64,000 bases of DNA. Source: a virus (taxonomy: Duplodnaviria > Caudoviricetes). Numbering within the stretch: position 1 is the first letter of the stretch; every line of letters starts with the position of its first letter. Both the position numbers and the translations under genes were made by a program. The stretch spans positions 1 to 64,000 of the IMG/VR virus record IMGVR_UViG_3300045284_000107. The stretch is one strand, 5' to 3'. A model generated the notes under the pieces. The model was not told the DNA's origin. It searched no databases and saw nothing but the letters and a program-made list of their open reading frames with translations. Shown here piece after piece: positions 24,710-46,260 of the stretch.

Positions 24710-26446
24710 ATGGGACCACAGACCCCCAGCGCCGACCGCCTCCACGCAATGAAATACCGCTCACCGGGCGAAGACTTCCGCGAAAGTATGAACCGGGTAG
24801 CATTTGGCTTAAAAGATTCGGACAACCACTACCACAAAACACGAGAAATTTTACTGGATCAACGGTTCCTTCCCGGTGGGCGCATCCAGTCGGCCATAGG
24901 ATCTTCCAAACACGTTACAAGCCATAACTGCTACGTCTCGGGCACCATTTCGGACTCATTTGTGGAGGGTCCAGGCTCCATAATGGACCGCGCAAAAGAA
25001 GCTGCCGCAACTATGCGTATGGGTGGAGGAATAGGCTATGACTTCTCAACTCTACGTCCGCGCGGAGAATTGGTGGCTAAACTACAAAGTCAATCCTCAG
25101 GACCAGTATCTTTCATGCATATCTTCGACGCTGTATGTCTTGCCACCGCGTCATCAGGGCACAGGCGAGGTGCTCAGATGGGCATCCTACGTATCGACCA
25201 TCCAGACATCGAGGAATTTATCCACGCTAAAAACAACCGGGATAAGCTCATTGGATTTAACATCAGCGTGGCCGTAACCGACGCCTTCATGGAGGCCATG
25301 AACAAAGGGGAAGAATTTCCCCTACAATGGAACGGCAAAAACTACCGCTATGTAGACGCGCGCGAATTGTGGGAAAACTTAATGCGCTCTACTTGGGACT
25401 GGGCCGAACCCGGAGTGGTGTTTATCGACACCATTAACAAAATGAACAATCTGTACTATTGTGAGACAATTGCAAGTACAAACCCCTGTTCTGAACAGCC
25501 CCTCCCGCCCTACGGTGCATGTCTATTGGGCAGTTTCAACCTTGTAAAGTATCTTTCGCGCGGTCCCGTCCCGGTAGGTCAAAGTCCCTGGACCTTTGAC
25601 ACTGAACTTCTCATCCACGACATTGCCCCAATCGTGCGCGCCCTAGACAATGTAATTGACAAAACCAGATACCCCCTAGCAGAACAACGCGCCGAAGCCA
25701 TGACAAAAAGAAGAATGGGAATTGGCATCACTGGTCTGGCAAACACCGCCGAAGCAATGGGTTACGTCTATGGCTCCCCCGAGTTCTGCACATTTGAATT
25801 GGGAATCCTCAATACCATAAATCGCGGGGCCTATCTCGCAAGTGCAGAATTGGCCGAGGAAAAAGGCCCGTTCCCACTATTCGACAGTGACAGGTACTTG
25901 GCAGGGGAATACGTCAAGGGCCTCGACGAGGAGGTGCGCCGAAAAATAAAAACTTGTGGAATGCGTAACTCCCACCTAACAAGTATAGCCCCGACCGGCA
26001 CAATCTCGTTGTGTGCCGACAATGTATCGTCCAGTATTGAACCCGTATTTGCCTACCGGCAAGAGCGGCCAATCAATACGCCTACGGGTCAGGCGATTGA
26101 AACCCTGGAGGACTACGGCTCCAAGTTCTTAAACATCAAAGGCAAACTTGCCAGTGATGTTACCGCTCAGGAACATTTGAACGTCTTGTTGACAGCTCAG
26201 AAGTACCTGGACTCGGCGGCATCCAAAACCATCAACATGGATGGCCGCAAAATGCCCTGGGAAGACTTCAAAAAAATCTACCAGACCGTATGGGAAAAAG
26301 GCGGTAAGGGCTGTAGTACATTCAACATTGCAGGAAAGCGCGGCGCGTTGTTATCAGAGGCTGAACCCGATGACATAGAAGTTGTCATAGACGAATACGA
26401 CATGTGCGAAATAGATCCTCTTACGGGGCGGCGTAACTGTGAATAA
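24710..26446 (+). CDS. nrdJ: class II (B12-dependent) ribonucleotide reductase
   Basis: FLPGGRI, NCYV, RRGAQMG, FNISV, EPGVVFID, TNPCSEQPL, APTGTIS, SKTIN; no beta-subunit gene nearby. Confidence 0.9.
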   Translation: MGPQTPSADRLHAMKYRSPGEDFRESMNRVAFGLKDSDNHYHKTREILLDQRFLPGGRIQSAIGSSKHVTSHNCYVSGTISDSFVEGPGSIMDRAKEAAATMRMGGGIGYDFSTLRPRGELVAKLQSQSSGPVSFMHIFDAVCLATASSGHRRGAQMGILRIDHPDIEEFIHAKNNRDKLIGFNISVAVTDAFMEAMNKGEEFPLQWNGKNYRYVDARELWENLMRSTWDWAEPGVVFIDTINKMNNLYYCETIASTNPCSEQPLPPYGACLLGSFNLVKYLSRGPVPVGQSPWTFDTELLIHDIAPIVRALDNVIDKTRYPLAEQRAEAMTKRRMGIGITGLANTAEAMGYVYGSPEFCTFELGILNTINRGAYLASAELAEEKGPFPLFDSDRYLAGEYVKGLDEEVRRKIKTCGMRNSHLTSIAPTGTISLCADNVSSSIEPVFAYRQERPINTPTGQAIETLEDYGSKFLNIKGKLASDVTAQEHLNVLLTAQKYLDSAASKTINMDGRKMPWEDFKKIYQTVWEKGGKGCSTFNIAGKRGALLSEAEPDDIEVVIDEYDMCEIDPLTGRRNCE

Positions 26447-26636
26447 AAAAGACGAACCCCTCTACCGTCGCACGGCCCGCCTAAAAAGGCGTAAGTGCCA
26501 CAAAGGACATTCCCGCCACAATGCCTTCGTTGAAATAGACCACCGAACGGGGGGCATAAGATTACGGTGCCGCACTTGCCACCGCGAACGCCTAAAAAAA
26601 TACCACTCGGAAGGAAAACTCTACCGCTATGTCTAA
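26439..26636 (+). CDS. small Zn-binding protein resembling the C-terminal domain of some HNH endonucleases
   Basis: CHKGH...RCRTC. Confidence 0.5.
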   Translation: MNKKDEPLYRRTARLKRRKCHKGHSRHNAFVEIDHRTGGIRLRCRTCHRERLKKYHSEGKLYRYV

Positions 26637-26754
26637 ATGGAGGACTTCCCATGACCTGTGCCCAACTACGATGTCAAAGTATCGTCTACTGGGCCTGGCA
26701 CAACGGCCGTATTGATTATTATCCCCACACCCTCAACCGTATGGGACACAAAAA

Positions 26755-26958
26755 ATGTTGGAAAAGGTTGTCTCCGCCCTCGAAAATGACCTCAACACTT
26801 CCCTCGCGATTACCCACCTCAACTCCCTTGCCAAGCAAATTATGGTCGAGACTGACCCGCAAAAACTATGGGAATTAAAGGTACAACTTTTGGCGGGCAT
26901 GAAATTGTTAGGACTGGAACCAAAATCCATTGGCGGGAATGGGAAGTCTCGTCCGTAA
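26755..26958 (+). CDS. stand-alone DALR-like domain (as in the CysRS C-terminus)
   Basis: ALENDLNTSLAITHL...LLAGMKLLGL. Confidence 0.6.
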   Translation: MLEKVVSALENDLNTSLAITHLNSLAKQIMVETDPQKLWELKVQLLAGMKLLGLEPKSIGGNGKSRP

Positions 26959-27110
26959 TGGCCAGCGATCGAGTGGTAAATCCCACCCGCAGCCACACTT
27001 CCTCACTCTAACCCTACGGGCGGCGCAATGGACTGGCCCCCCATTACACATAAGTCCAAATTATGTGTAGGCTGAGAGCTTACAGCTTGTAAGTCCTGAG
27101 TTTCGGCGGC

Positions 27111-27156
27111 TTGGTATCCCTGGGAACCCCAAACTCTCAGGGAGATACCAATTTTT
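27111..27156 (+). terminator. intrinsic terminator at the convergent junction
   Basis: TTGGTATCCCTGGGA...TCTCAGGGAGATACCAA followed by TTTTT. Confidence 0.6.
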
Positions 27157-27796
27157 AGGCACTACTTACGGCAAAATATGGTCTAAGTCCCAACCCTCCA
27201 ACACTAACAATTGGATGATTTAGGACCACATATGCATTTATTTTACTTAGGGTTTCTTCTGGTGGGGGTCCAAGGACTGCATACCCCTCGACCTTTGATA
27301 AATCTTCACTCGGCGGCGGTTTAAGGACCGCATACCCCTCAAACTTTGAAACGTCAACACTTAACCGAACATTTATAACCACATAGGTGATTAATTTGCT
27401 TAGGTCAAAATCTAAACTTGTTAGAACGGCATATGAATTTGTTTTTGCAAGTTCAATATCATTTGTTTCTAAAACAACATAGGAATTTAATTTTGAGGTA
27501 AGGGTTGGCGGTAAACTACTTCCACTTACCCCCGACTTACCATGAATATTCGCACTAAGTTGTATTTCTTTATATAAATCGCCACTTATACTACTTTGAG
27601 TATAGCTTCCAGTGTCCAGATCTACAGTTAAGAGGGTCGCCGTGGAAGTAATACTAGCCGCGGATTGTGTCTCTATTGTAGTAGTAAGACCAATCCCTGC
27701 AACCAGGGCTTCGCGTACTATACCACTGAGGTTTACCTGTCCAGCATCAGCTACTAAGGCTTCACGCCTTAACCCGCCAAGGCGTGCGTCGGTCAT
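27155..27796 (-). CDS. putative virion protein with six SK-x2-(G/S/T/A)Y(A/V)V(L/I) repeats
   Basis: Last gene of the tail operon; repeats seen in translation. Confidence 0.7.
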   Translation of the reverse strand: MTDARLGGLRREALVADAGQVNLSGIVREALVAGIGLTTTIETQSAASITSTATLLTVDLDTGSYTQSSISGDLYKEIQLSANIHGKSGVSGSSLPPTLTSKLNSYVVLETNDIELAKTNSYAVLTSLDFDLSKLITYVVINVRLSVDVSKFEGYAVLKPPPSEDLSKVEGYAVLGPPPEETLSKINAYVVLNHPIVSVGGLGLRPYFAVSSA

Positions 27797-27813
27797 TTGA
27801 TAAGACCTAAGTC

Positions 27814-29298
27814 CTACGAGTCAACTTTGAGGCCACTTTGGGCAGCGTTGAGAGTTATTCCGGTCCAGGGTGCCCCAGCCGACGGTTCAGTAATAAACAA
27901 CGACGTTAACCATCCAAAACTTGTCGCGGGAACAATCCCCGTCACCGAACCTCCACTATCCGTTCCAGATGATAATATTCTTAAACTTACAGATTTTGCA
28001 CCTGAGTCTGAGCGTTGAATATAGGCCTTTACTGCTACCCCATATACGACTGCGGGCAAAGCACTTAACGGGCCAAAATTATACAAGTCCTCATGCCCCA
28101 CAGTAGCATCAAAAACATAACTAGGCAGACCTGCGGGCGGCGATAAACTTACCTCATACCAATTATTCCCTGTAACTCCGGTCAGATTACCCCACAACAA
28201 CCATGAGCCAAATCCAGCCGTCATCGCCGGAGCTGTACCTGGCGCGCCCGAACTGAAAGTTGCATTCGCTCTATATCCAAGGGCATTATTATCACTTGCA
28301 GCCATATTAAACGCCGTGTCAGTCATAAAACCAAGCCAATACTGTGTCCCTGCACTTAAACTTTGTGGCGTGGTTAAATTCAAAGTCAAAGGTACACCTG
28401 AGCTAATACCTGTAACTGTAGACCCCGCGGACATTAGTGTTCCGGCCGCCCCAGAACTATCCGAATAAATAACAGGCCTAAAGTTCGCCGTGGCACTTGA
28501 AGCATTTGAAGAGATTGAAATTGAATTAATTGTTCCCGCTACAACAGGGGTGAAACGTCTCAGTCCCATACAATTCGCCACTGTCGCGACACTACCTTGG
28601 GTCCGTTGCCCCGCAGATCCCAATATCGCCGCTCCAAATCCAAACTGTACCGTTCCATCACTTGTAGGAAATGTAGTCTCAACCCTAGGGCTTGTCAAAA
28701 GCACCGCGTTATTGGTTGATCCGGTCGGGTCAAAAATGTACAAATCGTCAAATTGGCAAGCTCCGGCGGCACTCGGCTGGGTCAATTGAAACCCATTAGC
28801 AAACGCATTGGCCGAGGCTGTCGTATCCCCCGTCCCAGACATTACACTCACACCATCCATCCAAATCTGATACGATGCGGAATTTCCAAACGTAATGTCC
28901 CATTCATAATAATGAATACTGTTGGCCGTAATAGAGGTAGGGCTAGTTGCTATAACGGTCCCGCCTACAGTCCCATTTCTAAACGTAACAGTCGAAGCAA
29001 TTGAAATACAACACTGAACCGTGCCACCATCTAAAAAATATACCCCACATGTTCCTGTAAAAGCAGACGAAATTCTTATGCCGCCAATTAGCCGATTATA
29101 ATTAGTCGGAAGTACCTTGGTTAATGTACCCGTTCCGCCCGGTTGCATCGCAAATCCAGGACTACTTAGTCCCGCCACGATTGTACAAAGATTACCAGAG
29201 GAGTTCCATTCACCCGCCGTCATAAGCAAGGAGGCATATCCAGCATTAGAATTAAGCCCACCGTATTTATCAAACCCGTCCATAAAAATAAGTGCCAT
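27814..29298 (-). CDS. tail fibre/receptor-binding-like beta-rich structural protein
   Basis: MALIFMDGFDKYG start, G/S/T-rich, lectin-like beta pattern; in tail operon. Confidence 0.7.
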   Translation of the reverse strand: MALIFMDGFDKYGGLNSNAGYASLLMTAGEWNSSGNLCTIVAGLSSPGFAMQPGGTGTLTKVLPTNYNRLIGGIRISSAFTGTCGVYFLDGGTVQCCISIASTVTFRNGTVGGTVIATSPTSITANSIHYYEWDITFGNSASYQIWMDGVSVMSGTGDTTASANAFANGFQLTQPSAAGACQFDDLYIFDPTGSTNNAVLLTSPRVETTFPTSDGTVQFGFGAAILGSAGQRTQGSVATVANCMGLRRFTPVVAGTINSISISSNASSATANFRPVIYSDSSGAAGTLMSAGSTVTGISSGVPLTLNLTTPQSLSAGTQYWLGFMTDTAFNMAASDNNALGYRANATFSSGAPGTAPAMTAGFGSWLLWGNLTGVTGNNWYEVSLSPPAGLPSYVFDATVGHEDLYNFGPLSALPAVVYGVAVKAYIQRSDSGAKSVSLRILSSGTDSGGSVTGIVPATSFGWLTSLFITEPSAGAPWTGITLNAAQSGLKVDS

Positions 29299-29299
29299 G

Positions 29300-29962
29300 T
29301 TACGATGACCTTATGTTCAAGGAGCCTGCGGGGAAACTTACCAATACCCCGGCCGATATAATTTGTGGCACGACCTTTCGTACCATTCCATTCCCCGGCG
29401 CGGAAGTATTAACTCCCACTCCGCCATTTGTAACCGTAAATGAATTAGTCAAAGGTGATCCGCCAACAATCAACGGCCCCGTAAAGCTCCCAACCGCAAA
29501 CGTAGGATTAGTACCCCCATATTCAATCGTCCATTGTACCGTGTCACCCGCCAAATATCCATGTGCAGGAGAGGTAATAATAGCAGGTGTACCACTGCTT
29601 ACAGTGGCGGGGAACCACAAATAATTCCCCAGAAAGTCCCAAGCCAAAAGATTTCCCGTGGTCAAGGCGTCAAAGATGCCCATTCCAATCGCAGTTCCCC
29701 AAGCGGCAGTAGGAATAGGAAATGCTATAGGATTAGCATTTACGATTGAGGATGGCCCCGACCCTGTGGCGGCATTCCAATCTGCCGCCGCAGTTGCCAC
29801 CCGCGCATACCCGGTCCCCGAGACTTCTGTAAATCCTGTCCCTGCATCTATCCCTACCCCAGTGAACAGGCCTACATGGGCGGTAGGTATAGAAAACAAG
29901 GCAGACTTGCCAGTGACATGGTTCAGAATGCCTTGAGACACTCTATCTGTAAAGCCAGTCAT
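29300..29962 (-). CDS. minor tail/fibre protein
   Basis: EVSGTGYARV...FP..T..WGT....GIFDALTTGNLL, a motif common in phage minor tail proteins. Confidence 0.75.
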   Translation of the reverse strand: MTGFTDRVSQGILNHVTGKSALFSIPTAHVGLFTGVGIDAGTGFTEVSGTGYARVATAAADWNAATGSGPSSIVNANPIAFPIPTAAWGTAIGMGIFDALTTGNLLAWDFLGNYLWFPATVSSGTPAIITSPAHGYLAGDTVQWTIEYGGTNPTFAVGSFTGPLIVGGSPLTNSFTVTNGGVGVNTSAPGNGMVRKVVPQIISAGVLVSFPAGSLNIRSS

Positions 29963-29977
29963 TACCGTCCCTTTCTT

Positions 29978-30997
29978 TTAGGCCAACGCCTTAACGCCAT
30001 AGTTAAACCCCGCAGCTGTAAAATCCGCAATGAGCCACGGAGCGGAGGTATTGGGATTTAAGGCCCATTGACGAGAATAATTATTAAACGACGTAGACAA
30101 GGCAATGGACAACCCGGCCAAATAATCCGTCCCCGAAGTTCTAAGTGACCAATCCATATGTTGGGGGCCGGTGGCCCCAACCTGAGCGCGCGCCTCTTGG
30201 AAAAATCCTAGAACATTCCAAGTCCCTGCGGGGGCTACCGCGCCAGAGGGAGACCATTGTGAAAGATCATTATTCACCGTTGTGCTTACGAACGTGCCGT
30301 CTGAATTGTTGATTTCGTTTATGTTTCCAACAGTGTTAGGGAGCCATGATTGGGTGTTGCCCGACGCGGTAGCCGGTAAGGTCCACAGGGCCATTCCCCT
30401 CGTATCCTGATCGGCCACAATAATTTCCGAATAAAGTGTTTGGCCATTTGTGCCCCAATTAGATAATTCAACCTGATTTAACTGTGTCGCCGAGTCCGTG
30501 CGGGGATCTCCCGCAAAATTCACAACCATAGTCCCATTGAGCCAAACCTGTATCCCACCGGACACACTATAATCAATCTTTACATCTAAGGAATACAGTG
30601 TTGAGCTTGTGTGGGACGAGGAAAACGTGGCCAAATCAGTCAAAGTTCCCGCCGCATTCCTACTTGAAACTTTCGGCGTACCATACAACGATGCCGATGT
30701 TCTAATTACAATCCTTGACACCCCATCAGGACTACGAAAAAGTACATTCTGGCAATTTAAGACCGATCCTGTGTCTGTATCAAAAAACACACAATGAAAC
30801 CACACAACAGAACTGGATGTGAACGTGGGTAACTGTATTCGGTTGGCGGGCGGATCTGCCGTGGAGTTGCCACTATTTGCCCCCACCGCACACCGGCCAT
30901 ATCCAGCCCGAAACCGCCCGGTACTCGTACTTATCTGAGGAATTTGCGGGAATCCAGTAAATCCAATATCTTCCCCGGTCGCTTGCAAGATGGCCAT
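29978..30997 (-). CDS. beta-rich minor tail protein (lectin-like)
   Basis: Composition, context and architecture similar to 27814-29298. Confidence 0.65.
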   Translation of the reverse strand: MAILQATGEDIGFTGFPQIPQISTSTGRFRAGYGRCAVGANSGNSTADPPANRIQLPTFTSSSVVWFHCVFFDTDTGSVLNCQNVLFRSPDGVSRIVIRTSASLYGTPKVSSRNAAGTLTDLATFSSSHTSSTLYSLDVKIDYSVSGGIQVWLNGTMVVNFAGDPRTDSATQLNQVELSNWGTNGQTLYSEIIVADQDTRGMALWTLPATASGNTQSWLPNTVGNINEINNSDGTFVSTTVNNDLSQWSPSGAVAPAGTWNVLGFFQEARAQVGATGPQHMDWSLRTSGTDYLAGLSIALSTSFNNYSRQWALNPNTSAPWLIADFTAAGFNYGVKALA

Positions 30998-30999
30998 TT

Positions 31000-32085
31000 C
31001 TAGTTCCTCGCTCCAACGATTGTCCCATAAAGGCCGGCGATTGTACCATCAAACCCTGAATGTGCATACATTCGTAATCTCTGTCCCTGTGTGACATTGA
31101 ACGAGCCACAAGTCCAAGATCCCGAAGTCGAACCAGCGTGAATAGTCATACTTCCTACAGGCGTTCCCACCCCTGCCACATCAATCAATTGCAAATTAAA
31201 TACCGCGTCCAATAATGGCGCGATCTGACATCCCGGCAACGGACTTTTAGCCAGGTTTGCGTCAAAATTAACTGTCCACGGAAATTCTGCATCAAAAATC
31301 TGATAATTACTATCCCACGGATCCAGGACCAAATCTGTAATAAGTCCTCCGACCGAAAACGGCGTAACCCACAATCCGCGCGCCAACCCCGAACCAGTCA
31401 AAGTATAATTATATACCGGCAACATAGATATATCTTCTAGATTGCCCCCAACCGAATTGAAGGATGGAAATTTAAAACTTACCATGGTCCCGATCATAAT
31501 GGACGGATAAGTATGGGAGAATATCTGTCCTCCGACAAGTCCAAACTGGCCACCTATTGGATGGGCCGAGATTGCCGTGTCGAACATTCCCCGCCTCAAA
31601 TATGTGTCCAAATCGTACATACTTGGCGCGGTCAATACAACATTAGAATATCCTACAAGTTCCCCATCTACATAGGCTAGGGTAATCCCAACATCCGCAT
31701 CGCCGGCACTTGCTGCATCTATGACCCCATCACACATTCCCGTGTCCACAGATAACACATTTGTAGTGTCGGGGTCCGAACCGGCCAGGAAATTGGCCGA
31801 CAACATCCCTTGGACGCCACCCGTCATCATAGTGCCCAATTGGCCATATGAAGTGCCGCCATCTACCGAAGCCCAAATCTGGCACCCGCCCCAATCCTCT
31901 GTCGGACCCGTAACAATTATCCACAGCGATAATTGGCCCGCCGAAAGGCTCGGGTTGGGTTCAAAAATAATCGGCTCATTAACACTTGGCGGAAACGTGT
32001 CAATAATATCCGTGTAGCCGCCCGATCCTGAAACTTGTGAGTCATAAAGATAAGCCGTTCCAACGCCTGACGGGGAGAGTGCCAC
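31000..32085 (-). CDS. free-standing C-terminal half of the tail-tip host-specificity (J/GTA-g15-like) protein
   Basis: VNEPIIFEP, WGGCQIWASVDG, YVDGELVGY, YLRRG, FKFPSFN motifs. Confidence 0.7.
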   Translation of the reverse strand: MALSPSGVGTAYLYDSQVSGSGGYTDIIDTFPPSVNEPIIFEPNPSLSAGQLSLWIIVTGPTEDWGGCQIWASVDGGTSYGQLGTMMTGGVQGMLSANFLAGSDPDTTNVLSVDTGMCDGVIDAASAGDADVGITLAYVDGELVGYSNVVLTAPSMYDLDTYLRRGMFDTAISAHPIGGQFGLVGGQIFSHTYPSIMIGTMVSFKFPSFNSVGGNLEDISMLPVYNYTLTGSGLARGLWVTPFSVGGLITDLVLDPWDSNYQIFDAEFPWTVNFDANLAKSPLPGCQIAPLLDAVFNLQLIDVAGVGTPVGSMTIHAGSTSGSWTCGSFNVTQGQRLRMYAHSGFDGTIAGLYGTIVGARN

Positions 32086-32103
32086 GATGATTGTCCTTTC
32101 GTT

Positions 32104-34164
32104 TTAGTACAAGACCTTGGTAGTCTGTAAGGGTTCGGGGCCGTCCAAGATCAATTCTGGCCCTGAACTTAGAAGTTTCCCTTTAGGAAATCTCAGATCT
32201 AGGTCGGCCAAATGTCTAAAAGCACTTTCGTTTGGATCTCTAGGAATGGAATTTGTATTCCTAAATATTGATGGGCTGTTTATGGCCCGTTTTGTGGTCC
32301 ACCAAAAATTACTTGTATCCCCCCTAAATCCACTATAAAACACAACGTCTTTGACTAACGAAAACTTTAACATTGGCGGCAAGACAAGGCCCGAACCCAT
32401 AACACTATCCACATCGTGGCCATCCACCCACAATATAATCCTCTGAAACCCATCCAACGTCCATGTCAATAACAAATGTTGCCAAGTGCTATTTGTCAAA
32501 ATTATGTCTTGATCGGTCTGAAAATAAAACTCTCCATCTAAGATTACACTAAGAGACAGGTTTTCATCTATAAAGACCTTTAATTGTATGTGGCCATTAC
32601 TGTCTATGGCGGTGATTAGATCACAGGTCTCGCCCTTGGGTATTTCCTGATCCATATTGACCCACAGGGATAGGGTGCCTTGAGAACTGTCTTGTAATTG
32701 GGGATCTTGCCAAATATAAGCACTTTGACCCGTAAATGTCAGGGCAGCTAATGGTGGAGGTGTACTTACAGGCGCAGCGCCGCCCATTTGTGGATCTTCA
32801 CATGTAAAAATCAAATCCCCGTTGTCATTTTCTTCAATGGTCAAGATACGGACTGGATAATGGTCCAGGTATGTGTCCCCAGCATGGCCGGTCAACGTGA
32901 CCATATCCATTGGCTCTAACAAACAATATTGCCATCCCAACTGAAACTTTATCTGATTGTTGCGGATATACATCCGCCGTTGCATAAGTAATTGAATGGA
33001 GATTTGGGCCGAATACTGATTACAAAAGGCCCGCCCTGGTAATGAGTCCCCAATCCGTAACCCATACGTATCAATTGCGCCTTGGTCATAAGCAGTTATG
33101 ATTGTAGAGTTGTAAAAGTTTTTGCGGTCCATATATTCCATTGAGATCCAATTATCTGCATCCGCCGGGTTGGACCTCATCAACATGATTGGGTCATCAT
33201 CTCCAGGAGTTGGTATCCCTCCCTCTTGGTGTGGGTTCCAGGGCAGAAAATCATCATCCGTCAAATCATATTGATAGGTAAATGTAAACGGATACCAATA
33301 TGCACCGTTGTTGTTGAGTTCTAGATCCCCATAAGGGACGACCTTTAACAAACGTCCTGACCAAACCATTGTCGAATTAGTCAAAATTATCAAACCATTT
33401 AACCATTCAATTGCCTTTTGGTGCCCGTCTAGACTGGAACTTACCAGCAAGGACGCCGCCTGACAGTAATCCCCATATGTATTTAGGATCACCCCATCTG
33501 GGTCATGAGTTAGGCGATCCAAGCATTCTGGTGGAAAGCCCGCCCCGTACCTAACATTAGTCAAAAAATCTGTTATTATGTCTCCTGGATTTGCATCGGC
33601 GGTATATGCCCCCACATTTACGCCGGTCATCATTCCCGTAATTTCTATCCCTACGTTTGGTAAGACCGGAGATTGTCCAAGGTCCATTGGCGTCCCAGTA
33701 ACATGCACGGTCCCACTATAACCCAAACTATTAAAACTTGGGTCGGGGGTCTGCCCATCATATCCCAGATAGGCATGTAATCCCGTAGATCCAAACGATG
33801 CAACCCCGGCCGAGGAAAAAACTAAATTAGCAGTTGTACCCCCGACAGGGCCTTGACACAAGGCAAAATCTACAAACACGCTATAGTGGCCATTCTTTTT
33901 GCCGCCCTTACCCTTACTGCTACCCCCGCCTTTTCCTGATTGGGAGGTGCCACTTAGGGGCAACGATCCCGTCTTGCCTTTTTTACCTTTTGGTCCCTTA
34001 TAATTCTTAAGATCTATAAGATTGACCTGTTGCCGACACGTCCCATAGATCAATGGGATTACAGATCCTTGTTGTGACGTATTATAATGCAAAGCATTTT
34101 TGGCCTGGTGCTGCCAAGCCGTGTTCTGCAAAAACGACTGTTGGGGCCGAAAAATCGAACTCAT
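32104..34164 (-). CDS. tail-tip hub protein paralog B (Phage-tail_3-like N-region + LamG-like C-domain)
   Basis: PLIYGT, LCQGPV, ANP..II.DFLTN.RYGAG, EYMDRKNFYN, LLEPMD; C-terminal LSLWV...WQHLLLTW. Confidence 0.85.
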   Translation of the reverse strand: MSSIFRPQQSFLQNTAWQHQAKNALHYNTSQQGSVIPLIYGTCRQQVNLIDLKNYKGPKGKKGKTGSLPLSGTSQSGKGGGSSKGKGGKKNGHYSVFVDFALCQGPVGGTTANLVFSSAGVASFGSTGLHAYLGYDGQTPDPSFNSLGYSGTVHVTGTPMDLGQSPVLPNVGIEITGMMTGVNVGAYTADANPGDIITDFLTNVRYGAGFPPECLDRLTHDPDGVILNTYGDYCQAASLLVSSSLDGHQKAIEWLNGLIILTNSTMVWSGRLLKVVPYGDLELNNNGAYWYPFTFTYQYDLTDDDFLPWNPHQEGGIPTPGDDDPIMLMRSNPADADNWISMEYMDRKNFYNSTIITAYDQGAIDTYGLRIGDSLPGRAFCNQYSAQISIQLLMQRRMYIRNNQIKFQLGWQYCLLEPMDMVTLTGHAGDTYLDHYPVRILTIEENDNGDLIFTCEDPQMGGAAPVSTPPPLAALTFTGQSAYIWQDPQLQDSSQGTLSLWVNMDQEIPKGETCDLITAIDSNGHIQLKVFIDENLSLSVILDGEFYFQTDQDIILTNSTWQHLLLTWTLDGFQRIILWVDGHDVDSVMGSGLVLPPMLKFSLVKDVVFYSGFRGDTSNFWWTTKRAINSPSIFRNTNSIPRDPNESAFRHLADLDLRFPKGKLLSSGPELILDGPEPLQTTKVLY

Positions 34165-34176
34165 TTATGTGGCCCC

Positions 34177-36483
34177 CTAGAGATACGGATCATCATTACA
34201 GATCGTCAACGAGGCCCCCACAAGACCCAGATTAGGATATGCCAAGTCTCCGCCCCCGCCACTACCACTTACTCCATAAAAATTCTCCCAATACAAATGA
34301 TCGTCAGGTTTAAACCCCGCCCGGTTATACGCATAATACGATTGGTCAAGTCCGGGCTGGTTAGGATTTAAATTACCTACGGCTGGATAATGCAAGAATA
34401 CATGAGGAGATTTACCAAACGGATACTCGCCGCGAGGTCCAAGATCCTTAGCACTTCCGTCAGGGTTCCTAAACGAACTCGGGCTTGAATGTTGCGCCGA
34501 ACCATCAAACCACAAGTCCTGGGTGCAACCTCTCAGTGTCCCGCCAATCACGCCAAAGTTCGCGCCCGAATAAAATATAATAGTCCGCTCATTTGAATAC
34601 TTTACGTCATACCAGGGTATAAGAATAGACGATAAAGCAAAATCATAAGCCCGTTCGCCGTCTACCCAAGCATTTACTTTGGGGCTGGCCCAACTAAACA
34701 GCACATGATGCCATTGCCCATCAAACTTTAAAACTTCTGGATTAGACAAGAGAGAAATTTTATTAGCCGTATAGCTGCCTGCCACCCAGCCAAACAACCT
34801 CCCACGCCAATCTACCCCCAATCCCAACTCCATCCTCACATCACTTGGATCAGGTGGTTGGGTATGAACAAAGAAAAACCTACTATCAAACGCGCCGTCG
34901 GGGCCGGTCGGAGCCTCATCTTCGGTAATTTTAACCCATACGCTTAATGAGCCGTGGCGACTATCCGGCGGATGTGTATGCTCCCAATTAAAATTAGGAA
35001 ATGTAGCATAGCCGGGGGTGGTAGATGGCCATATACAACCCGAAACGGTCATATGTACGGCCTTTTGATGATCCCTAAATGTCTCGCCGGTCATTGGCGC
35101 CGCGGTTCCAGGCTGCGGATCTTCCCCTGTAATTATCAAATCCCCATTATCATTTTCTTCAATAGCTGTAATTCGGACCGGATACTTGTCTAGATATTTG
35201 TCCCCATGAAGGCCCGTGACAGAGACAAAATCCATAGGTTCCAACAAGGCATACCGCCATCCAACCTGGAACTTCACCCCTGTGTTTCGAACATAAAGTT
35301 TGCGCTGAAGAAGAATTTGGAGCGAGATGGAGGCCGATCCAAGGTCCGCAAACGCCCTCCCCGCGATTGAGTCCCCAATCCTGAGACCATAAGTATCTAT
35401 GGCACCTTGGTCAAACGCGGTCAAAATGGTCGAAGCATAAAAGTTTTTTCTATCTGTATATTCAATACTGTGCCAGTTATCAGCATCGGCGGGATTTGAA
35501 CGAGTGATAATTATGGGATCGTCATCTCCAGGATTGACTGGCGCGCCATCCTGATGTGGAGCAAAGGGCAGAAAATCATCATCATCCAAATCATATTTAG
35601 GTACAAAGTCCGGTATCCAATGAGCACCATTGCGGTTTAATTCTGCATCACCGTAAGGGATGATTTTTAATTGTTTGCCGGACCAAACCATTGCGGAGTT
35701 GGTCAATTGACAAATCCCCTGCATCCATTCAATTGCCTTCATATGTCCATCTAAGGCCACACTAATCAACAAGTAATTGGACTGACAATAATCGCCGTAA
35801 GTATTGACCCGGCCGGGCAAACGGGTCAGGGGGGCGACACATTCGGGCGGGAACCCCGCCCCATATCTAGGATTAGTCAAAAAATCCGTAATACACTCGG
35901 CGGGGTTTGCGTCTTTTGGATTGGACGGCCCAGTGTTAATGCCAGTCATAAACCCATTGATTTCAAACCCAATATTCGGCACAACAGGAGACTGTCCTAG
36001 ATCTATTGGCGTCCCTGTGACATGGCATGTTCCACTATAATTTACCTTATTAAAATGTGGGTCTAAGGCCTGTCCATCTTGGCCCTCATAAAAATGCAAT
36101 ATAGACGATCCAAACTGCTCGACCCCAGACGACGAATAAATAGTATTGTGTGGGTCGAAATGTACGGGGCCTTGGCATATCGCAACGTCTATATTGACAG
36201 AATAATGTTTGTTCTTTTTCGCGCCTTTGCCCTTACTTCCACCTGATCCCTTACCAGTCTGGGAAGTCCCAGACAATGGAATAGATCCTACTTTGCCTTT
36301 TTTGCCTTTCGGCCCCCTGTAATCATTCAAATCAATAAGGTTCATTTGCACGCGCACGGTGCCATATATCAATGGCAAAACCGATCCCTGCTGAGACGTA
36401 TTGTAATGTAAAGCATTTATAGCACTATGTTGCCAAGCGGTATTTTGCAGGAACGATCTCTTGGGTCGAAACAACGAACTCAT
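34177..36483 (-). CDS. tail-tip hub protein paralog A (Phage-tail_3-like N-region + different LamG-like C-domain)
   Basis: Same motifs as paralog B; C-terminal SLSVWVK...WHHVLFSW; follows the NlpC/P60 gene. Confidence 0.85.
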   Translation of the reverse strand: MSSLFRPKRSFLQNTAWQHSAINALHYNTSQQGSVLPLIYGTVRVQMNLIDLNDYRGPKGKKGKVGSIPLSGTSQTGKGSGGSKGKGAKKNKHYSVNIDVAICQGPVHFDPHNTIYSSSGVEQFGSSILHFYEGQDGQALDPHFNKVNYSGTCHVTGTPIDLGQSPVVPNIGFEINGFMTGINTGPSNPKDANPAECITDFLTNPRYGAGFPPECVAPLTRLPGRVNTYGDYCQSNYLLISVALDGHMKAIEWMQGICQLTNSAMVWSGKQLKIIPYGDAELNRNGAHWIPDFVPKYDLDDDDFLPFAPHQDGAPVNPGDDDPIIITRSNPADADNWHSIEYTDRKNFYASTILTAFDQGAIDTYGLRIGDSIAGRAFADLGSASISLQILLQRKLYVRNTGVKFQVGWRYALLEPMDFVSVTGLHGDKYLDKYPVRITAIEENDNGDLIITGEDPQPGTAAPMTGETFRDHQKAVHMTVSGCIWPSTTPGYATFPNFNWEHTHPPDSRHGSLSVWVKITEDEAPTGPDGAFDSRFFFVHTQPPDPSDVRMELGLGVDWRGRLFGWVAGSYTANKISLLSNPEVLKFDGQWHHVLFSWASPKVNAWVDGERAYDFALSSILIPWYDVKYSNERTIIFYSGANFGVIGGTLRGCTQDLWFDGSAQHSSPSSFRNPDGSAKDLGPRGEYPFGKSPHVFLHYPAVGNLNPNQPGLDQSYYAYNRAGFKPDDHLYWENFYGVSGSGGGGDLAYPNLGLVGASLTICNDDPYL

Positions 36484-36953
36484 TGTGCGGCGACCTCTGA
36501 TATTTTATCCGACATTTCATCTTCTAACATCAAGGGCCTATAAAAGACCCTAGCTTTGGACATTAAATGTCCTTGTGTCCCATCCGCATATATGACCCCG
36601 CGCGTCACATACGAATGAATGATACGGGGCCATTCAACTATAATTCCCCCATGCGAAAAGACCCGCCCCACACGATACAAGACTAGATCCGCCGGTAAGG
36701 CCTCTGCCATTGTAATTGGCCGCGAAAATCTCTCTACGATAGATTTGTACCATTCCTCTGAACGATGTAGGTGAAAATCTCGTGGATAATATGCCGTCTT
36801 GACGTGGGGTATAAATCCACACTCCTCAAACACCCCAAGTAAAAACTGGCCACAATCCACCCCTGCACCCTTGCACCGTTGTAGGTGATGGAATGGTGTC
36901 CCTACCCATTCCCCGGCCACCTGCAAAACCTTCTGTCTTCTTTCATTTAACAT
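36480..36953 (-). CDS. NlpC/P60 tail-associated peptidase (GTA g14-like)
   Basis: WVGTPFHH...GVDC..F, SHGGI. Confidence 0.9.
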   Translation of the reverse strand: MLNERRQKVLQVAGEWVGTPFHHLQRCKGAGVDCGQFLLGVFEECGFIPHVKTAYYPRDFHLHRSEEWYKSIVERFSRPITMAEALPADLVLYRVGRVFSHGGIIVEWPRIIHSYVTRGVIYADGTQGHLMSKARVFYRPLMLEDEMSDKISEVAAQ

Positions 36954-36954
36954 T

Positions 36955-37059
36955 TTAGTCTCCTACTGCATTTATGGCCCACATAAGACCCTCCACAATC
37001 AACAGCCACAAAACTATGCCCAAAATGACAAACCCCACCCGCCATAAAAATTTCTTCAA
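36955..37059 (-). CDS. possible 34-aa membrane peptide
   Basis: TTG start overlapping the upstream stop; LKKFLWRVGFVILGIVLWLLIVEGLMWAINAVGD. Confidence 0.35.
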   Translation of the reverse strand: MKKFLWRVGFVILGIVLWLLIVEGLMWAINAVGD

Positions 37060-38012
37060 ATGGCGGTCTCAGGGGGTGGAATATACGGAAACCCGCCATA
37101 CCGCGCCCGATTTTGAAACGTATTGGTACAGGTGTTTAGCGTGTGGTCACATCCTGGGAAGACGTGAAAATAATCCGAACTTTCCACAACTGGGAAGATC
37201 CACGGTTTAAGAAAATACACCGTATTCCAGGGAGAGCCGGGAATAATTTTACCAATCGTTCGCGTAAACCCAGCGTTTAGACCCGTAAAGCCCTGAATTG
37301 TACCATTATCATACGACGTTGCAATCGCGGGGGTGAAAGTTGTCTTTATCGAATTTTGGTCCGATCCAACACCGCAGATAAATTCTGCCAGACCAATCCC
37401 GGTCGCAGTCCCTAACGCATTTAAACCATTTACCCGATCATATCCGCACATTCCAAATCCAGGCTCCCCAAACACATGGTTACATGCAGATTGGAACAGT
37501 CTTCGGGGCATTTGCACTGTTAGGAGGTCCAACAATGATTTGACCCGTATTGCAGTTTTTGTACGTCCTATATCTACATCTCCGACCCGACCATAAAACC
37601 AAGTAATTGTTCCCACCACATGTGGGGGAGAACCTGTCAAGAATGCGCGCAAAAGTTCACAATATGCCCCATCGAACAATCCGACAAAAAAGGCATTCTG
37701 CCAAGTGATTGTGCCCCCAGAATTGACGGCCAAGATATCCTCATCCCCGGCATACAGGTCAATGGATAATTCATCGACTTGGGGGCCGACCTCGACCTTG
37801 GATTTGGTCCGCGCAAACCTCGGCCCCAAAACAAACTCATAAGTCGGCGCGGTAGTATTGGGCAGGGGAGCTACCAATGGTGTTTGGAAACCTGAATAAT
37901 AAAACGTTTCGCCGGTTATGAGAGTGAATATGTATAGGTCAGCAATCATGACCCGTTGGGAGGTGGGCCAATTATCCAGAAAAGTCTTCAGCGCGGTTGA
38001 AGCCAAACGCAT
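37056..38012 (-). CDS. DUF2163 / BR0599 baseplate hub protein (GTA g13-like)
   Basis: C-terminal PGCDHTLNTC..TF.NR..YGGFPYIPPPE; ATG at 38012. Confidence 0.9.
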   Translation of the reverse strand: MRLASTALKTFLDNWPTSQRVMIADLYIFTLITGETFYYSGFQTPLVAPLPNTTAPTYEFVLGPRFARTKSKVEVGPQVDELSIDLYAGDEDILAVNSGGTITWQNAFFVGLFDGAYCELLRAFLTGSPPHVVGTITWFYGRVGDVDIGRTKTAIRVKSLLDLLTVQMPRRLFQSACNHVFGEPGFGMCGYDRVNGLNALGTATGIGLAEFICGVGSDQNSIKTTFTPAIATSYDNGTIQGFTGLNAGFTRTIGKIIPGSPWNTVYFLKPWIFPVVESSDYFHVFPGCDHTLNTCTNTFQNRARYGGFPYIPPPETAI

Positions 38013-38023
38013 CTTAGATCTCC

Positions 38024-38659
38024 CTAGTACAACACAGATGTAAGTTTTAGTTGCTTCATGGACCACAGTTGATACATGAAGTTTTCGGCCTCTAGATTGT
38101 CCGTGGCGAAGCGGACCTTGTAGCGGTAGGTTCCATCAAAAGTAATTGGTGTGCCACTACCGGGGGCGGTCCCATAAGTAATGACCCCCGTATCAAAGTT
38201 CGGCACCGACCCAGTAGGGGAAAATGTATAATCTATAGGAATAATTGGGGCGCGAATTGCACTACAAAGTTGGAAACTCTTTGTTGTACCGTCACCTACG
38301 GCGACAGTTATGGCCTGCGCCACAGCCGGATCGGCCCGCGTAGTATTATCCGTAGGATCATAAAACTGAAACGGAATACTTGCTCCACATTGTTGATTGA
38401 AGAAGTTCCAAATCTGTCGCAATTCATCCCTGGGGGTAGTCACGTCCGCATAGGCATGGCCGCGCAATGGGCCATCTCGTATATCCCACCGATCTCTTAA
38501 AACCTCATACGTTAATGTAAAGGTATAAATAGGTAATATATAATCATTTACGCGCAGTTCGCGGCCACTTACGGCCCTCTGCATTCGGGTGGCCCAGTTG
38601 GGGCTTTTCATTACGGACCATCCCAACGTGATAGTATTAGGAAAGACATTTAGTGCCAT
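38024..38659 (-). CDS. DUF2460 distal tail protein (GTA g12-like)
   Basis: GWSVMKSP.W.T...AVSGRE.R...FF....G....F.F.DP.D. Confidence 0.85.
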   Translation of the reverse strand: MALNVFPNTITLGWSVMKSPNWATRMQRAVSGRELRVNDYILPIYTFTLTYEVLRDRWDIRDGPLRGHAYADVTTPRDELRQIWNFFNQQCGASIPFQFYDPTDNTTRADPAVAQAITVAVGDGTTKSFQLCSAIRAPIIPIDYTFSPTGSVPNFDTGVITYGTAPGSGTPITFDGTYRYKVRFATDNLEAENFMYQLWSMKQLKLTSVLY

Positions 38660-38664
38660 CGCCC

Positions 38665-41600
38665 TTATCCTGGCAAATTGGGGTTGAAGTTACGATAAGC
38701 GTTCCGGTACAGGCCCGCGATAGTATCCCTGTGGTTCATTAGAAATTGGGCACCAGATCGTTGATCTATGGCATTTATGTGGAAGTTGATTGGGGGCGGC
38801 GGCATCCCGGCAGGGCCACCACCATTAGCCCCATCTTGTACCGCCTCCGACAAATGCTTTGGAAGAACCATTTCCCCAGGGTGCAAGATTGACAATGTAC
38901 CCCCTCTTGACAGGTTTGCTCCGCCGCCCATAATCATTCCCCCCTCTGCCGAGGGAATTATCCCACCCTGTTCCAACATAAAGATTGGAAGTATTTTTCC
39001 TATGGTGCCAAAAATGCTACCGGCCGTATCTAAAAGTCCTCCACCACCACCCCCACCGCTATCACTTTTATTATCCCCAAACATACTAAAGATAGATTTC
39101 AATCCACCAAAAGCCCCACTAATCGTAGACATTGAGGTGGATAGTTTGGCAACTCCATTTTCAGATGATCCAGTGGTACGGGCCATTGACCCCAACGCAC
39201 CCGTAACCTTTGTTACGTCTGTAGCCAGATCACCCATTTTGGTACTAACATTACTGACATTTTCGGTCAGTTGGCGTACTGCTGTGTTTGTACCTATTGC
39301 ACCGCCGGCAACCGGACTATAAGTCGGAGAACCTGGAGTAATTTCTGAGACCACTCCGCCTTCTGCATATCCTCTCGGTAGAACAACTTCTCCACCTTGC
39401 AAAAATGCAGCCATATCATGTGGAACCTGTCCACCTCCATGGAACTTAGGTAGGATCTTTTCCCACCACGACTTGGACGGCTCATCCTTATCGCCAATTG
39501 TTTTGCCTGTGTATGGATTTATATTTGCCGCTTTGTCCTTGTATTTGTCCAATTGTTCTTGGGTCAGCGGAGTAGTAATTTGGGTTACATCTTCGGCCCC
39601 AAAATCTTTAGTATCTAATAGTTTTTTGGCCAAGGCCTTGTCTTTGTCTTTTTCGCCAAACAGGGATGCAATTCCTCCCGCTACAGCCAAACCTCCCAAT
39701 AAGGCAAGCCAGAACCATCCCTTTCCCAGACCCGGATTGGTCTGTACCAAATGATACGGGGCAAAGCCGCGACTTTCATTTGTAAGAGATGTGAGGCCTG
39801 GATGGGACGCTACAATGCCTCCATCGGCAAACTTAGGCATTGATCCAGATGGAAACAACTGGGCCATTGGATCAAGGTCTCGGAATTTTAATGCTTCACG
39901 AAGGGTAAGCCCTTCATGATGCTGCATTCCATTTCGACCCATAGATACAACATCAAACTTCTCACCTCTAAGTACACTTTCCCGCGCTATACTTGCCTCT
40001 GCGGGCTTTCCTGCAAATTCCCGCCCTCCACTTACCCTAAACCCATATAAATCTGTAGTTTCCCCCGTCATCTGAAACATACGTCTGAATGTATCACGGA
40101 TAAATTGGCCACCAAGTGCTCCGCGGCCATACCCTGCCGCAAATGTTTGACCTGGAAGTTCTGGATTGACCGAGGGCAAGGGCGAACTTGCCAATCCAAT
40201 ATGTATACCTCTAAATTTCTCGCTTGATTTGCGATATAAATCGCCTTCCATTACGGGCTTTCTTTCGCCCTCGGCAAAGGCCCCAAATTCCATATGCCGA
40301 TATTCTATACCACGAACAGTCTGGCTTTCTGGATTTATAAACTTTAGTTTTTGGAATTTCAGGGCACCACTTTCATCTGCCAACATAGATGGAACGGCGG
40401 CGGCCATTTCCCGAGCAATTGGCACTCCCGCTCGTATCGCCCCAATACCCGCCCGCGCAACAGGAAATAAAGTAGAGACGCCAGTTGCAGCTCCGACTAC
40501 GCCCTGACCAAACGCCTGTAGATATTCCCCCCTACGGGCGGCCAATATTGATTGCTCAATATCTGTATAGCCAATTAGAGATTTGCCAATATCTTTCAAT
40601 GACGGAACAGGTTCGGGTTTGTATTTTAAAAATTCCCCTTCCAAATTTTGCTTATAAATTTCCTCAACAAGTCCGCCATCGGCAAATCTTTGACCCCGTT
40701 CTGCCAAAATCCTCCTATAACGCTTCATTTCGTTAAGTTCGGCTTCTGTACCTCCCATACTGTAATGACCAGCATCAGGGGTACCAAACGTGCTACCAAT
40801 GGCTATAGACTGGCCGGGATAATACCTATCGCGGGCCTTAAGCATTTCTTCGTCTAGTTTACGATATAAAGGACCGCCTCTCCCCATCATTCCAGGAACA
40901 AGGTTTCCCTTCGCGTCAAAAATCCCAACATCAAATGCCCGGCCCATACCATGTTCGGAAGGTTCACCAGTTCCTTTAACGGTAGACCCAGGTCTATTAG
41001 CCGAGGTTATTTTAGTTGAAAACCCTCTGGGCAGATTTTCATTAGCACTATCCATCAAGAAGTGAAGTTTTAGAAGTTCGGGGGTATCATATGTCATACC
41101 TCCTATTGTAAGATTTTCGCCCCCTGCAATTCCGCCCTCTTGATGGCGTTCAATCCCTGACGGGAACATACGATCGTATTTGGCCCGCTGATTGCGGGTC
41201 AGAACCCGTTCCCCTGGAGTAAGCCACGCCAATACAGTATCTGTACCTACAGGACCGCCAAGTGCATATGCAGGTGTAGGCACACTTGTAGGAGCAGGCG
41301 GACTTGCCGTAGGTCCGGCTCCAGGAGCCTTAATCGCCGCCAAAGCACTTGCAGCTGTGGATGCGGCACTTCCAAGTCTTCTTAGTTCATTTTGGGCGGC
41401 TTCAGCACCACCTATACTATAATGTCCCGCATCCGGCTTATCACTAAATGTACTTCCTACTGCCAATGGCTGGCCGGGATATAACTTGTCCCTGGCCTTT
41501 ATCATTTCTTCGTCCAGTTTACGATACATGGGACCACCACGACCCATGTACCCTGGAACTCGTTTCCCTTCTGGATCTAGAACTTCAACGTCCGCGGCCC

Positions 41601-45816: not shown

Positions 45817-45831
45817 CGAACTGACCTCTAC

Positions 45832-46260
45832 TTACAGGGTCTCGATTAGGGCGTCGTAGAGTTGGTCTTCAATCCAGGGCTTTAACTGGGCCATTCGTTG
45901 GGCCAAGATGTCAGAACCTTTGAGATACGGATGTCGCACATACCGTGTCCGCACTAGATCACCTGATTTGGCAACAAACCTCAACATTCTGGCCTTTACA
46001 GGTACGATTGGATAAAATCCGGTCTTGTCCTGGGATTCTATATATCCAATTAATGTAGTCCCTTGTTGCGTGACCCCCGAATGAATAGTGCCCGGATCAA
46101 GATATTTCGCCGGTAATGTGTGAAACAAATCCTCATGAATAGTAGTAACAATGTTGTATAATTTATTGGTTAGGGCATCCTGTATCTTTTTGGGCAGGCC
46201 CTTAAGTGCCACCAGTACCTCATCGCCCTGTACTGTGATGTCAATTAAGGAGCCTGCCAT
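45832..46260 (-). CDS. tail completion/neck protein (HK97 gp10-like)
   Basis: I.P.KA..LRF...G..V....V.HP motif. Confidence 0.6.
   Translation of the reverse strand: MAGSLIDITVQGDEVLVALKGLPKKIQDALTNKLYNIVTTIHEDLFHTLPAKYLDPGTIHSGVTQQGTTLIGYIESQDKTGFYPIVPVKARMLRFVAKSGDLVRTRYVRHPYLKGSDILAQRMAQLKPWIEDQLYDALIETL

Follow-up and report, generated by a model that had tools for sequence, protein, structure and literature searches.

Tail-tip hubs of siphophages, among them gpJ, pb3, gp53 and the megatron, are treated as single homotrimeric polypeptides. Here we describe a block of three genes, termed A, B and C, in which such a hub is encoded in pieces. The block lies in positions 1 to 64,000 of the virus record IMGVR_UViG_3300045284_000107 (Caudoviricetes), and this whole stretch of 64,000 nucleotides (nt) is referred to below as the window. 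Gene A (34177-36483; 768 amino acids, aa), gene B (32104-34164; 686 aa) and gene C (31000-32085; 361 aa, GTG start) are open reading frames (ORFs) located, like the flanking tail genes, on the minus strand. In order of transcription they are preceded by a tape-measure ORF of 2383 aa (38665-45816) and by three genes of the types found in the Rhodobacter capsulatus gene transfer agent (RcGTA). These encode a distal tail protein (Dit) of the DUF2460 family and g12 type (38024-38659; Pfam PF09343, E 5e-30), a baseplate hub protein of g13 type with a Gp84_N attachment domain and BR0599 (37056-38066; PF09931, E 1e-19, and PF09356, E 6.5e-13), and, in the g14 position, a putative NlpC/P60-like tail peptidase (36480-36953). 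The peptidase matches PF00877 under the curated cutoff (E 8e-4) and the minor tail protein family phrog_329 with E 1.4e-9. An original prediction for this DNA had placed the three ORFs at these positions, after GTA-like DUF2460, DUF2163 and NlpC genes, and the arrangement was confirmed, with the reservation that the NlpC match is weak. The order of DUF2460 Dit, hub (DUF2163), peptidase and tip protein also occurs in the relatives L001-L003. By fold and gene context, the tip proteins are members of the megatron/gpJ hub superfamily, and the module is likely to be the distal tail tip of an uncultured soil siphophage with a baseplate of RcGTA/R4C type, composed of Dit, hub, putative NlpC/P60-like peptidase and megatron.

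The genes of the block are tightly packed. The stop codon of the peptidase gene overlaps the start of A in an ATGA sequence, 12 nt separate A from B and 18 nt separate B from C, and a good ribosome-binding site (AAGGA) precedes C. No minus-strand terminator-like site was found within A-B-C or upstream as far as the tape-measure gene, and the sole such site (27708-27695) falls within the gene that ends the module. Shuffled sequence contained promoter-like sites no less often than this DNA.

Genes A and B encode paralogues that match in BLASTP (E=0, 53% identity overall), with identity falling from 68.8% before a junction to 24% after it. The motif EENDNGDLI..EDPQ.G.AAP marks this junction, its last position being nt 35095 for A and nt 32770 for B. 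The shared N-region had been put at about 465 aa, with about 78% identity over its first 107 residues and an abrupt divergence after this same motif; the measured values are 463-465 aa and 84 of 107 residues (78.5%), and the divergence was borne out. The core N-region of A (residues 1-463; 35095-36483) comprises an N-terminal segment, a Gly/Lys-rich loop, and the adhesin-like and central (Phage-tail_3) domains, and matches PF13550 with E 3.7e-21; that of B (residues 1-465; 32770-34164) matches the same family with E 3e-16. The N-terminal motif of the cores is highly conserved. In fold comparisons, residues 9-468 of the A model match residues 38-982 of the RcGTA megatron (6tba_8A) with a Z score of 25.4 and a root mean square deviation of 3.1 over 356 residues, residues 52-1125 of the R4C megatron (Z 23.8) and residues 2-394 of JBD30 gp53 (Z 21.5), and the core also matches residues 2-408 of the phage Chi tip protein. 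Pfam gave no match to GTA_TIM or any other family between the adhesin-like and central domains, and the 463-aa core skips the peripheral domain of RcGTA. When the published domain maps of the megatron and JBD30 proteins are set against these fold matches, the N-region of A and B is, as modelled, a complete core through the Dit-docking central domain, minus the TIM-barrel peripheral domain. A Gly/Lys-rich, low-confidence loop interrupts the adhesin-like domain at residues 57-92 of A (approximately 36300-36210), in the same region of B and in most relatives, and resembles a disordered loop described in the adhesin-like domain of R4C.

Four independent comparisons place C directly after this core. 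The profile of phrog_1101 (1405 positions) is matched contiguously by A (147-467) or B (150-473) and then by C (474-675). An exhaustive HMMER search with C returned 2430 relatives, in which the segment corresponding to residues 5-235 of C mostly occupies positions of about 420-660 in proteins of 700-1800 aa. The protein P0135 is a single polypeptide of 784 aa that aligns with residues 16-455 of A (34% identity, E 9e-69) and, 14 residues past that match, with residues 20-359 of C (37% identity, E 7e-58). The boundaries of the fold matches to the core and to C are likewise collinear in R4C (1125/1132), JBD30 (394/401) and Chi (408/417). Aligning the N-region and C with intact homologues, the check that had been suggested for this locus, thus showed that C follows the junction.

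Published structures provide domain maps for this part of the protein. The RcGTA megatron consists of adhesin-like (47-229), peripheral (230-744), central (745-984) and fibre-binding (985-1304) domains, the last held by a 20-residue linker (PMC7296036), and in the R4C megatron the central domain (904-1130) is followed by the fibre-binding domain at 1131-1447 (PMC10276861). In JBD30 gp53, a long linker leads from domain IV to the FN3-like domains V-VII, which hold receptor-binding trimers (PMC11445458). Because these maps place the junction there, the break is, on the alignments and models, in the linker between the central (Dit-docking) and fibre-binding domains and not within the hub, and the expectation of a break at a domain boundary was correct. 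Across relatives, the position of the break varies by no more than a few residues. Fused forms read ...TAED-FF-GGYSTAxLYPKQ..., and in split forms the core ends near ...ED and C starts M..G(V/I)(G/S)TAxxYPxQ. The motif G-[VI]-[GS]-T-A-x-x-Y-P-x-Q is present at the N-terminus of >50 free C proteins as well as in the linker of fused forms. Since this conserved, disordered peptide is kept on so many free C proteins, we propose that it acts as a non-covalent anchor. Single-sequence phmmer searches of the PDB gave no meaningful match for A or C, and a profile search of the PDB with the alignment termed A2 matched the RcGTA and R4C megatrons only via the N-parts of its fused rows.

Gene C encodes two predicted parts. 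Residues 1-232 (31390-32085) hold the conserved linker peptide and a homologue of the fibre-binding domain (FN3-like and containing Rcc01698_C), as indicated by PF23666 (E 3e-8), the phrog_1101 profile, the motif and fold matches of model residues 28-231 to R4C megatron 1132-1336 (Z 17.7), JBD30 gp53 401-707 (Z 17.4) and Chi 417-625 (Z 15.4). Residues 233-361 (31000-31389) match a C1q/TNF-like jelly-roll head: model residues 235-361 are most similar to residues 475-582 of the tail fibre of Agrobacterium phage 7-7-1 (Z 13.7, 23% identity) and also match C1q heads (Z about 7.5). As its last 127 residues form such a jelly roll in the model, C may carry a binding head of its own. The third gene had been read as the C-terminal half of the hub. 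Its collinearity with the post-junction segment stands, but 'half' does not describe a fibre-binding domain with a C1q-like head beside a core that is already whole in the N-region. Agrobacterium phage 7-7-1, the best match of the head, is flagellotropic. The C genes of relatives encode 281-592 aa, and many align with residues 1-235 only; the head of C is therefore variable among relatives and a second point of exchange.

In place of the fibre-binding segment, A and B end in extensions of 305 and 221 aa. The extension of A (residues 464-768 plus stop; 34177-35094) is a LamG/pentraxin-like domain by Laminin_G_3 (E 6.7e-6) and by model matches of residues 472-768 to the LamG-like domain of PAPP-A (Z 18.4) and to pentraxins (Z about 16; PTX3, Z 16.2). 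That of B (residues 466-686 plus stop; 32104-32769) is a LamG-like domain scoring 33.1 bits against Laminin_G_3, above the cutoff of 27.6, and is a diverged homologue of the domain of A, with 23% identity and E 1e-10 in tblastn. A tblastn scan for further LamG copies in the window, at E 0.01, located the sites in A and B and no others. The tails had been described as LamG-like, which holds for both, and as unrelated-looking, which does not survive the detectable homology. In a tree of LamG domains, those of A and B group together (support 92/93), the stem of B being long (1.7 substitutions per site); LamG terminal branches measure 1.0-1.3, those of the core 0.13-0.23. These data indicate at the sequence level that the whole gene, including LamG, was duplicated, after which divergence in the LamG parts ran 6-8 times faster than in the core. 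Separate acquisition of two LamG domains was considered and rejected, because the tree groups A with B; the idea that receptor domains had been put into the slot separately gives way to one in which they were duplicated together with the gene. These domains may bind glycan or Ca2+, a shared fold alone being no proof of function.

To place the locus in context, we relied on a census of 76 viral-contig loci and 80 metagenome loci collected by alignment to the N-region, plus six found by exact protein look-up. The loci were sorted by phmmer, and the counts below are non-redundant and describe roughly 130 related loci. Fused genes, in which the core is followed directly by the C-part, make up 59 loci; a core-only gene (about 430-475 aa) with a separate C gene is found at 40, and a core with an extension and a separate C gene at 14. 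Two core genes occur in tandem in five cases, described below. About half of the related loci are thus split, which makes the split a norm within a large soil clade; the fission was not particular to the window's phage, where the original prediction had located it. Megablast of the module against 50,697 phage records gave no match, and tblastn gave only distant tip proteins of Acinetobacter, Brevundimonas and Pseudomonas siphophages.

In the tree of N-regions, the split, core-only L011 groups with fused 785-aa forms (L018, L152 and L158; support 99/98), and for this reason fission or re-fusion at this linker probably took place more than once, the tree being unrooted. Separately, in five fused-type loci (L027, L056, L063, L074 and L155) the tip gene is broken elsewhere into two overlapping ORFs; such breaks, which differ from the clean split at the linker, are likely to reflect frameshifts or errors of assembly.

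The census also bears on the use made of the core's new C-terminus. Among 74 proteins with a core and an extension, single-linkage clustering by BLAST (E 1e-5) yielded seven extension families, of which one is the LamG family, and L001/L002, the nearest sister lineage of the window's phage, carries an extension of another family. Because the families differ between lineages, the earlier proposal of a slot for swappable domains is supported at the level of the clade. The same position invites a different explanation, namely that the LamG extensions are structural adaptors that replace the megatron peripheral domain as a seat for C or fibres and do not bind receptors. In RcGTA, the linker and a contact with the peripheral domain hold the fibre-binding domain (PMC7296036), no GTA TIM-barrel peripheral domain is present here, and the extension is placed exactly where the covalent link is lost. 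Nevertheless, the 40 core-only loci keep a separate C without any extension, so that no adaptor seems to be needed, and extensions of seven unrelated families evolve 6-8 times faster than the core while C is conserved (70% identity between the window's phage and L003), which is the opposite of what a docking interface would show. We consider an adaptor role rather unlikely.

The duplication that produced A and B is shared with other phages. L003, an independently assembled soil contig from the Joint Genome Institute (JGI), has the same A-B-C layout (777, 690 and 361 aa), and L162, from a third sample, carries an A-type gene followed after 12 nt by the start of a second core gene that is cut by the contig end. 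In the maximum-likelihood tree of N-regions, the A proteins of the window and L003 form one sister pair and the B proteins another (100/100), so the duplication is older than these phages. Identities between A and its orthologue are 73% in the core and 33% in LamG, and between B and its orthologue 81% and 34%; between A and B they are 69% and 24%, and the same value is obtained within and between genomes. Only five sites are shared in a genome-specific manner, versus 31 that are class-specific (A versus B). At the DNA level the cores of A and B are 65-67% identical with a longest identical run of 19 nt, and synonymous differences are saturated (proportion of synonymous differences, pS, 0.74) with a non-synonymous divergence (dN) of 0.28. 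Judged from these comparisons, the duplication is old, at least two other metagenomic phages have it in common with the window's phage, and purifying selection acts on the cores of both copies.

These figures also speak to proposals that would make the tandem arrangement recent or spurious. Gene conversion between A and B was considered and rejected (five versus 31 sites, longest identical run 19 nt), and the DNA identity, the saturated pS and the site pattern together rule against recent recombination and a strain chimera as well. Homologous recombination that deletes or swaps the paralogues, as had been suggested, is unlikely for the same reasons. One of the paralogues might be redundant and decaying, or the tandem might be an assembly chimera of two strains; A does evolve somewhat faster than B (branches of 0.23 and 0.16 versus 0.13 and 0.12), and the sequence comes from a metagenome. 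Yet both ORFs are intact in the window and in L003, L162 has the beginning of a second copy, dN is far below the synonymous rate (dS), and the divergence of the paralogues at the DNA level is far beyond strain variation. Conservation of the A-B pair in the independent assemblies L003 and L162 contradicts a chimera, and we regard decay or chimerism as very improbable. Contigs with this region from two soil-metagenome runs show no differences from it, one spanning all of it and another, from the second run, bridging the A/B junction, and no alternative joints at A/B were seen in them; because both runs are possibly the source of this sequence, the support they give is weak.

Within 26000-46000 the only repeats are the 71%-identical segments of A/B paralogy. 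The interval contains neither inverted repeats nor a template/variable pair close to identity, which a diversity-generating retroelement would require, no search for genes of a reverse transcriptase or an invertase having been made; the view that the locus is neither such a retroelement nor a shufflon is compatible with this repeat content. At L162:781-3252, the two core copies agree at 50 of their first 55 residues, compared with 44 of 55 in the window and 41 of 55 in L003, and the third codon positions of the L162 copies match at 28 of 55. On the protein level, copies within one genome may thus retain similar N-terminal segments.

A second clade of duplicated cores, consisting of L089, L009 and L090 (support 98/97), represents, from its place in the tree, a second and independent event. 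In L089 (3947-9218) and L009 (7001-9153), a bare core gene of 456-461 aa is followed by a core with a 478-aa extension of the LamG family and then by a C gene. All five tandem cases belong to split lineages, and the 59 fused loci include no such case; these numbers are too small for significance.

Taken together, these observations are best explained, with good though not overwhelming probability, by a hub made in pieces, in which tandemly duplicated, LamG-bearing cores mix in a trimeric tip and share a single C, the LamG domains serving as adhesion modules. By analogy with RcGTA, R4C and JBD30, three core subunits per virion would alternate with three hub proteins under the Dit ring. A and B would compete for the same three positions and would most likely mix, as suggested by their common orientation, tight packing, equally conserved cores that lack class-specific patches, and the absence of a terminator between them. 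The majority of particles would in that case carry both kinds of LamG domain at the upper rim of the baseplate. The LamG domains are predicted to branch off at the central domain's top and could serve in adhesion by binding glycans; that they evolve fast suits a surface that is exposed and faces the host. Free C would dock non-covalently, through its conserved N-terminal peptide, onto whichever core subunit is present, and would supply its own head, an attachment site for downstream fibre proteins, or both.

Several observations weigh against this explanation. The Laminin_G_3 score of the A tail (26.8 bits) is just under the curated cutoff, and the AlphaFold model of A is of moderate confidence (predicted local distance difference test, pLDDT, 70.8), with residues 1-26 unmodelled at values below 50. 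In addition, the core-only form (about 450 aa) is the commonest split type, so that assembly can proceed without the extension, whose role could be accessory.

How A and B are distributed among particles admits other answers. If the subunits did not mix, an option that the original prediction had also raised, separate homotrimers would give two particle types per burst with different adhesion specificities, a form of bet-hedging. The 31 class-specific core differences could include interface residues that enforce self-association, and both genes have been conserved over long times. On the other hand, these differences show an even spread over the core, without clustering of a kind that might mark a specialized interface, the cores are 69% identical, and the adjacency of the genes without a terminator between them favours co-assembly. 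Two unmixed particle types thus seem improbable to us, albeit less so than an adaptor function of the extensions. Somewhat more credible, yet still tentative, is a stricter form of the mixed-tip explanation in which the tip is obligately or predominantly heterotrimeric, so that two paralogues bring two lectin domains to each particle and three-fold equivalence is broken. Such a tip would have evolved at least twice independently (in the window's phage, L003 and L162, and in L089 and L009), the detached core gene having been free to duplicate after the hub was split; in L089 and L009 the pair would consist of a bare core and a core with a 480-aa extension.

The closest known counterparts are the megatrons of RcGTA (Rcc01698, g15; PDB 6TBA/6TEH) and R4C (8GTC). 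They share the gene order, the peptidase position being represented here by a weak NlpC/P60-like match, and the fold, with Z 25.4 and 23.8 for the adhesin-like plus central part and Z 17.7 for the fibre-binding domain. In contrast to these megatrons, the proteins described here are split at the central/fibre-binding linker and lack the TIM-barrel peripheral domain, the core bears a terminal LamG domain and is present as two tandem paralogues, and the fibre-binding piece has its own C1q-like head. The Rcc01698_C fibre-binding domain is consequently not in cis with the core; it is encoded by C, and A and B end in LamG instead. JBD30 gp53 (8RK3), the Chi tail tip (8VJH), lambda gpJ and T5 pb3 have the same hub architecture, with a long linker to FN3-like domains that carry receptor-binding proteins, but each is a single polypeptide from one gene and none is reported with tandem paralogous cores. 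In T5, the later fibre is divided between pb3 and pb4, at a point other than the one used here. A 2026 preprint reassigns the 'iris' helices of RcGTA, once given to the N-terminus of the megatron, to the tape-measure protein's C-termini.

A further parallel is offered by 'evolved' Dit and Tal proteins and peripheral carbohydrate-binding modules (CBMs), such as the CBM of the R4C megatron and Dit insertion domains, in which lectin folds are grafted, at permissive points, on a conserved baseplate scaffold as they are here. Grafted modules of this kind are thought to mediate reversible adhesion to polysaccharide (PMC10276861). These are carried in an internal loop, whereas the module described here is at a C-terminus made by gene fission, and its diversity comes about via duplication of the whole scaffold gene. 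Grafted carbohydrate-binding modules are already familiar, as are fission and fusion of tail proteins. Our literature search, which included PF13550, found no description of a split megatron, of paralogous or heterotrimeric siphophage hubs, or of tandem hub cores.

The data show that within a large environmental clade a split of the hub at one linker is routine. At least seven unrelated domain families use the resulting C-terminus as their docking point, and duplication of the core gene has occurred at least twice. This is a natural and well-delimited example of phages modularizing their host-recognition hardware, and it offers a permissive fusion point on a conserved scaffold. As far as alignments and models indicate, one phage is probably able to display two adhesion domains. 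The arrangement raises the question of mixed-subunit tips, and its relevance is mainly to phage structural biology and evolution.

Four more tail or fibre-like genes, recognized by Pfam and PHROG scans, follow C on the minus strand down to position 27155. For the ORFs at 29978-30997 and 27814-29298, the matches were limited to PHROGs without known function. Between them lies a gene (29300-29962) for a 220-aa protein whose N-terminal 110 residues match Pfam Gp80 (podophage GP4 fibre I; E 2.5e-22); its product is a candidate fibre that could attach to C. The 213-aa ORF at 27155-27796 contains two adjoining 50-nt direct repeats (27261-27361) that are 76% identical, with a period of 51.

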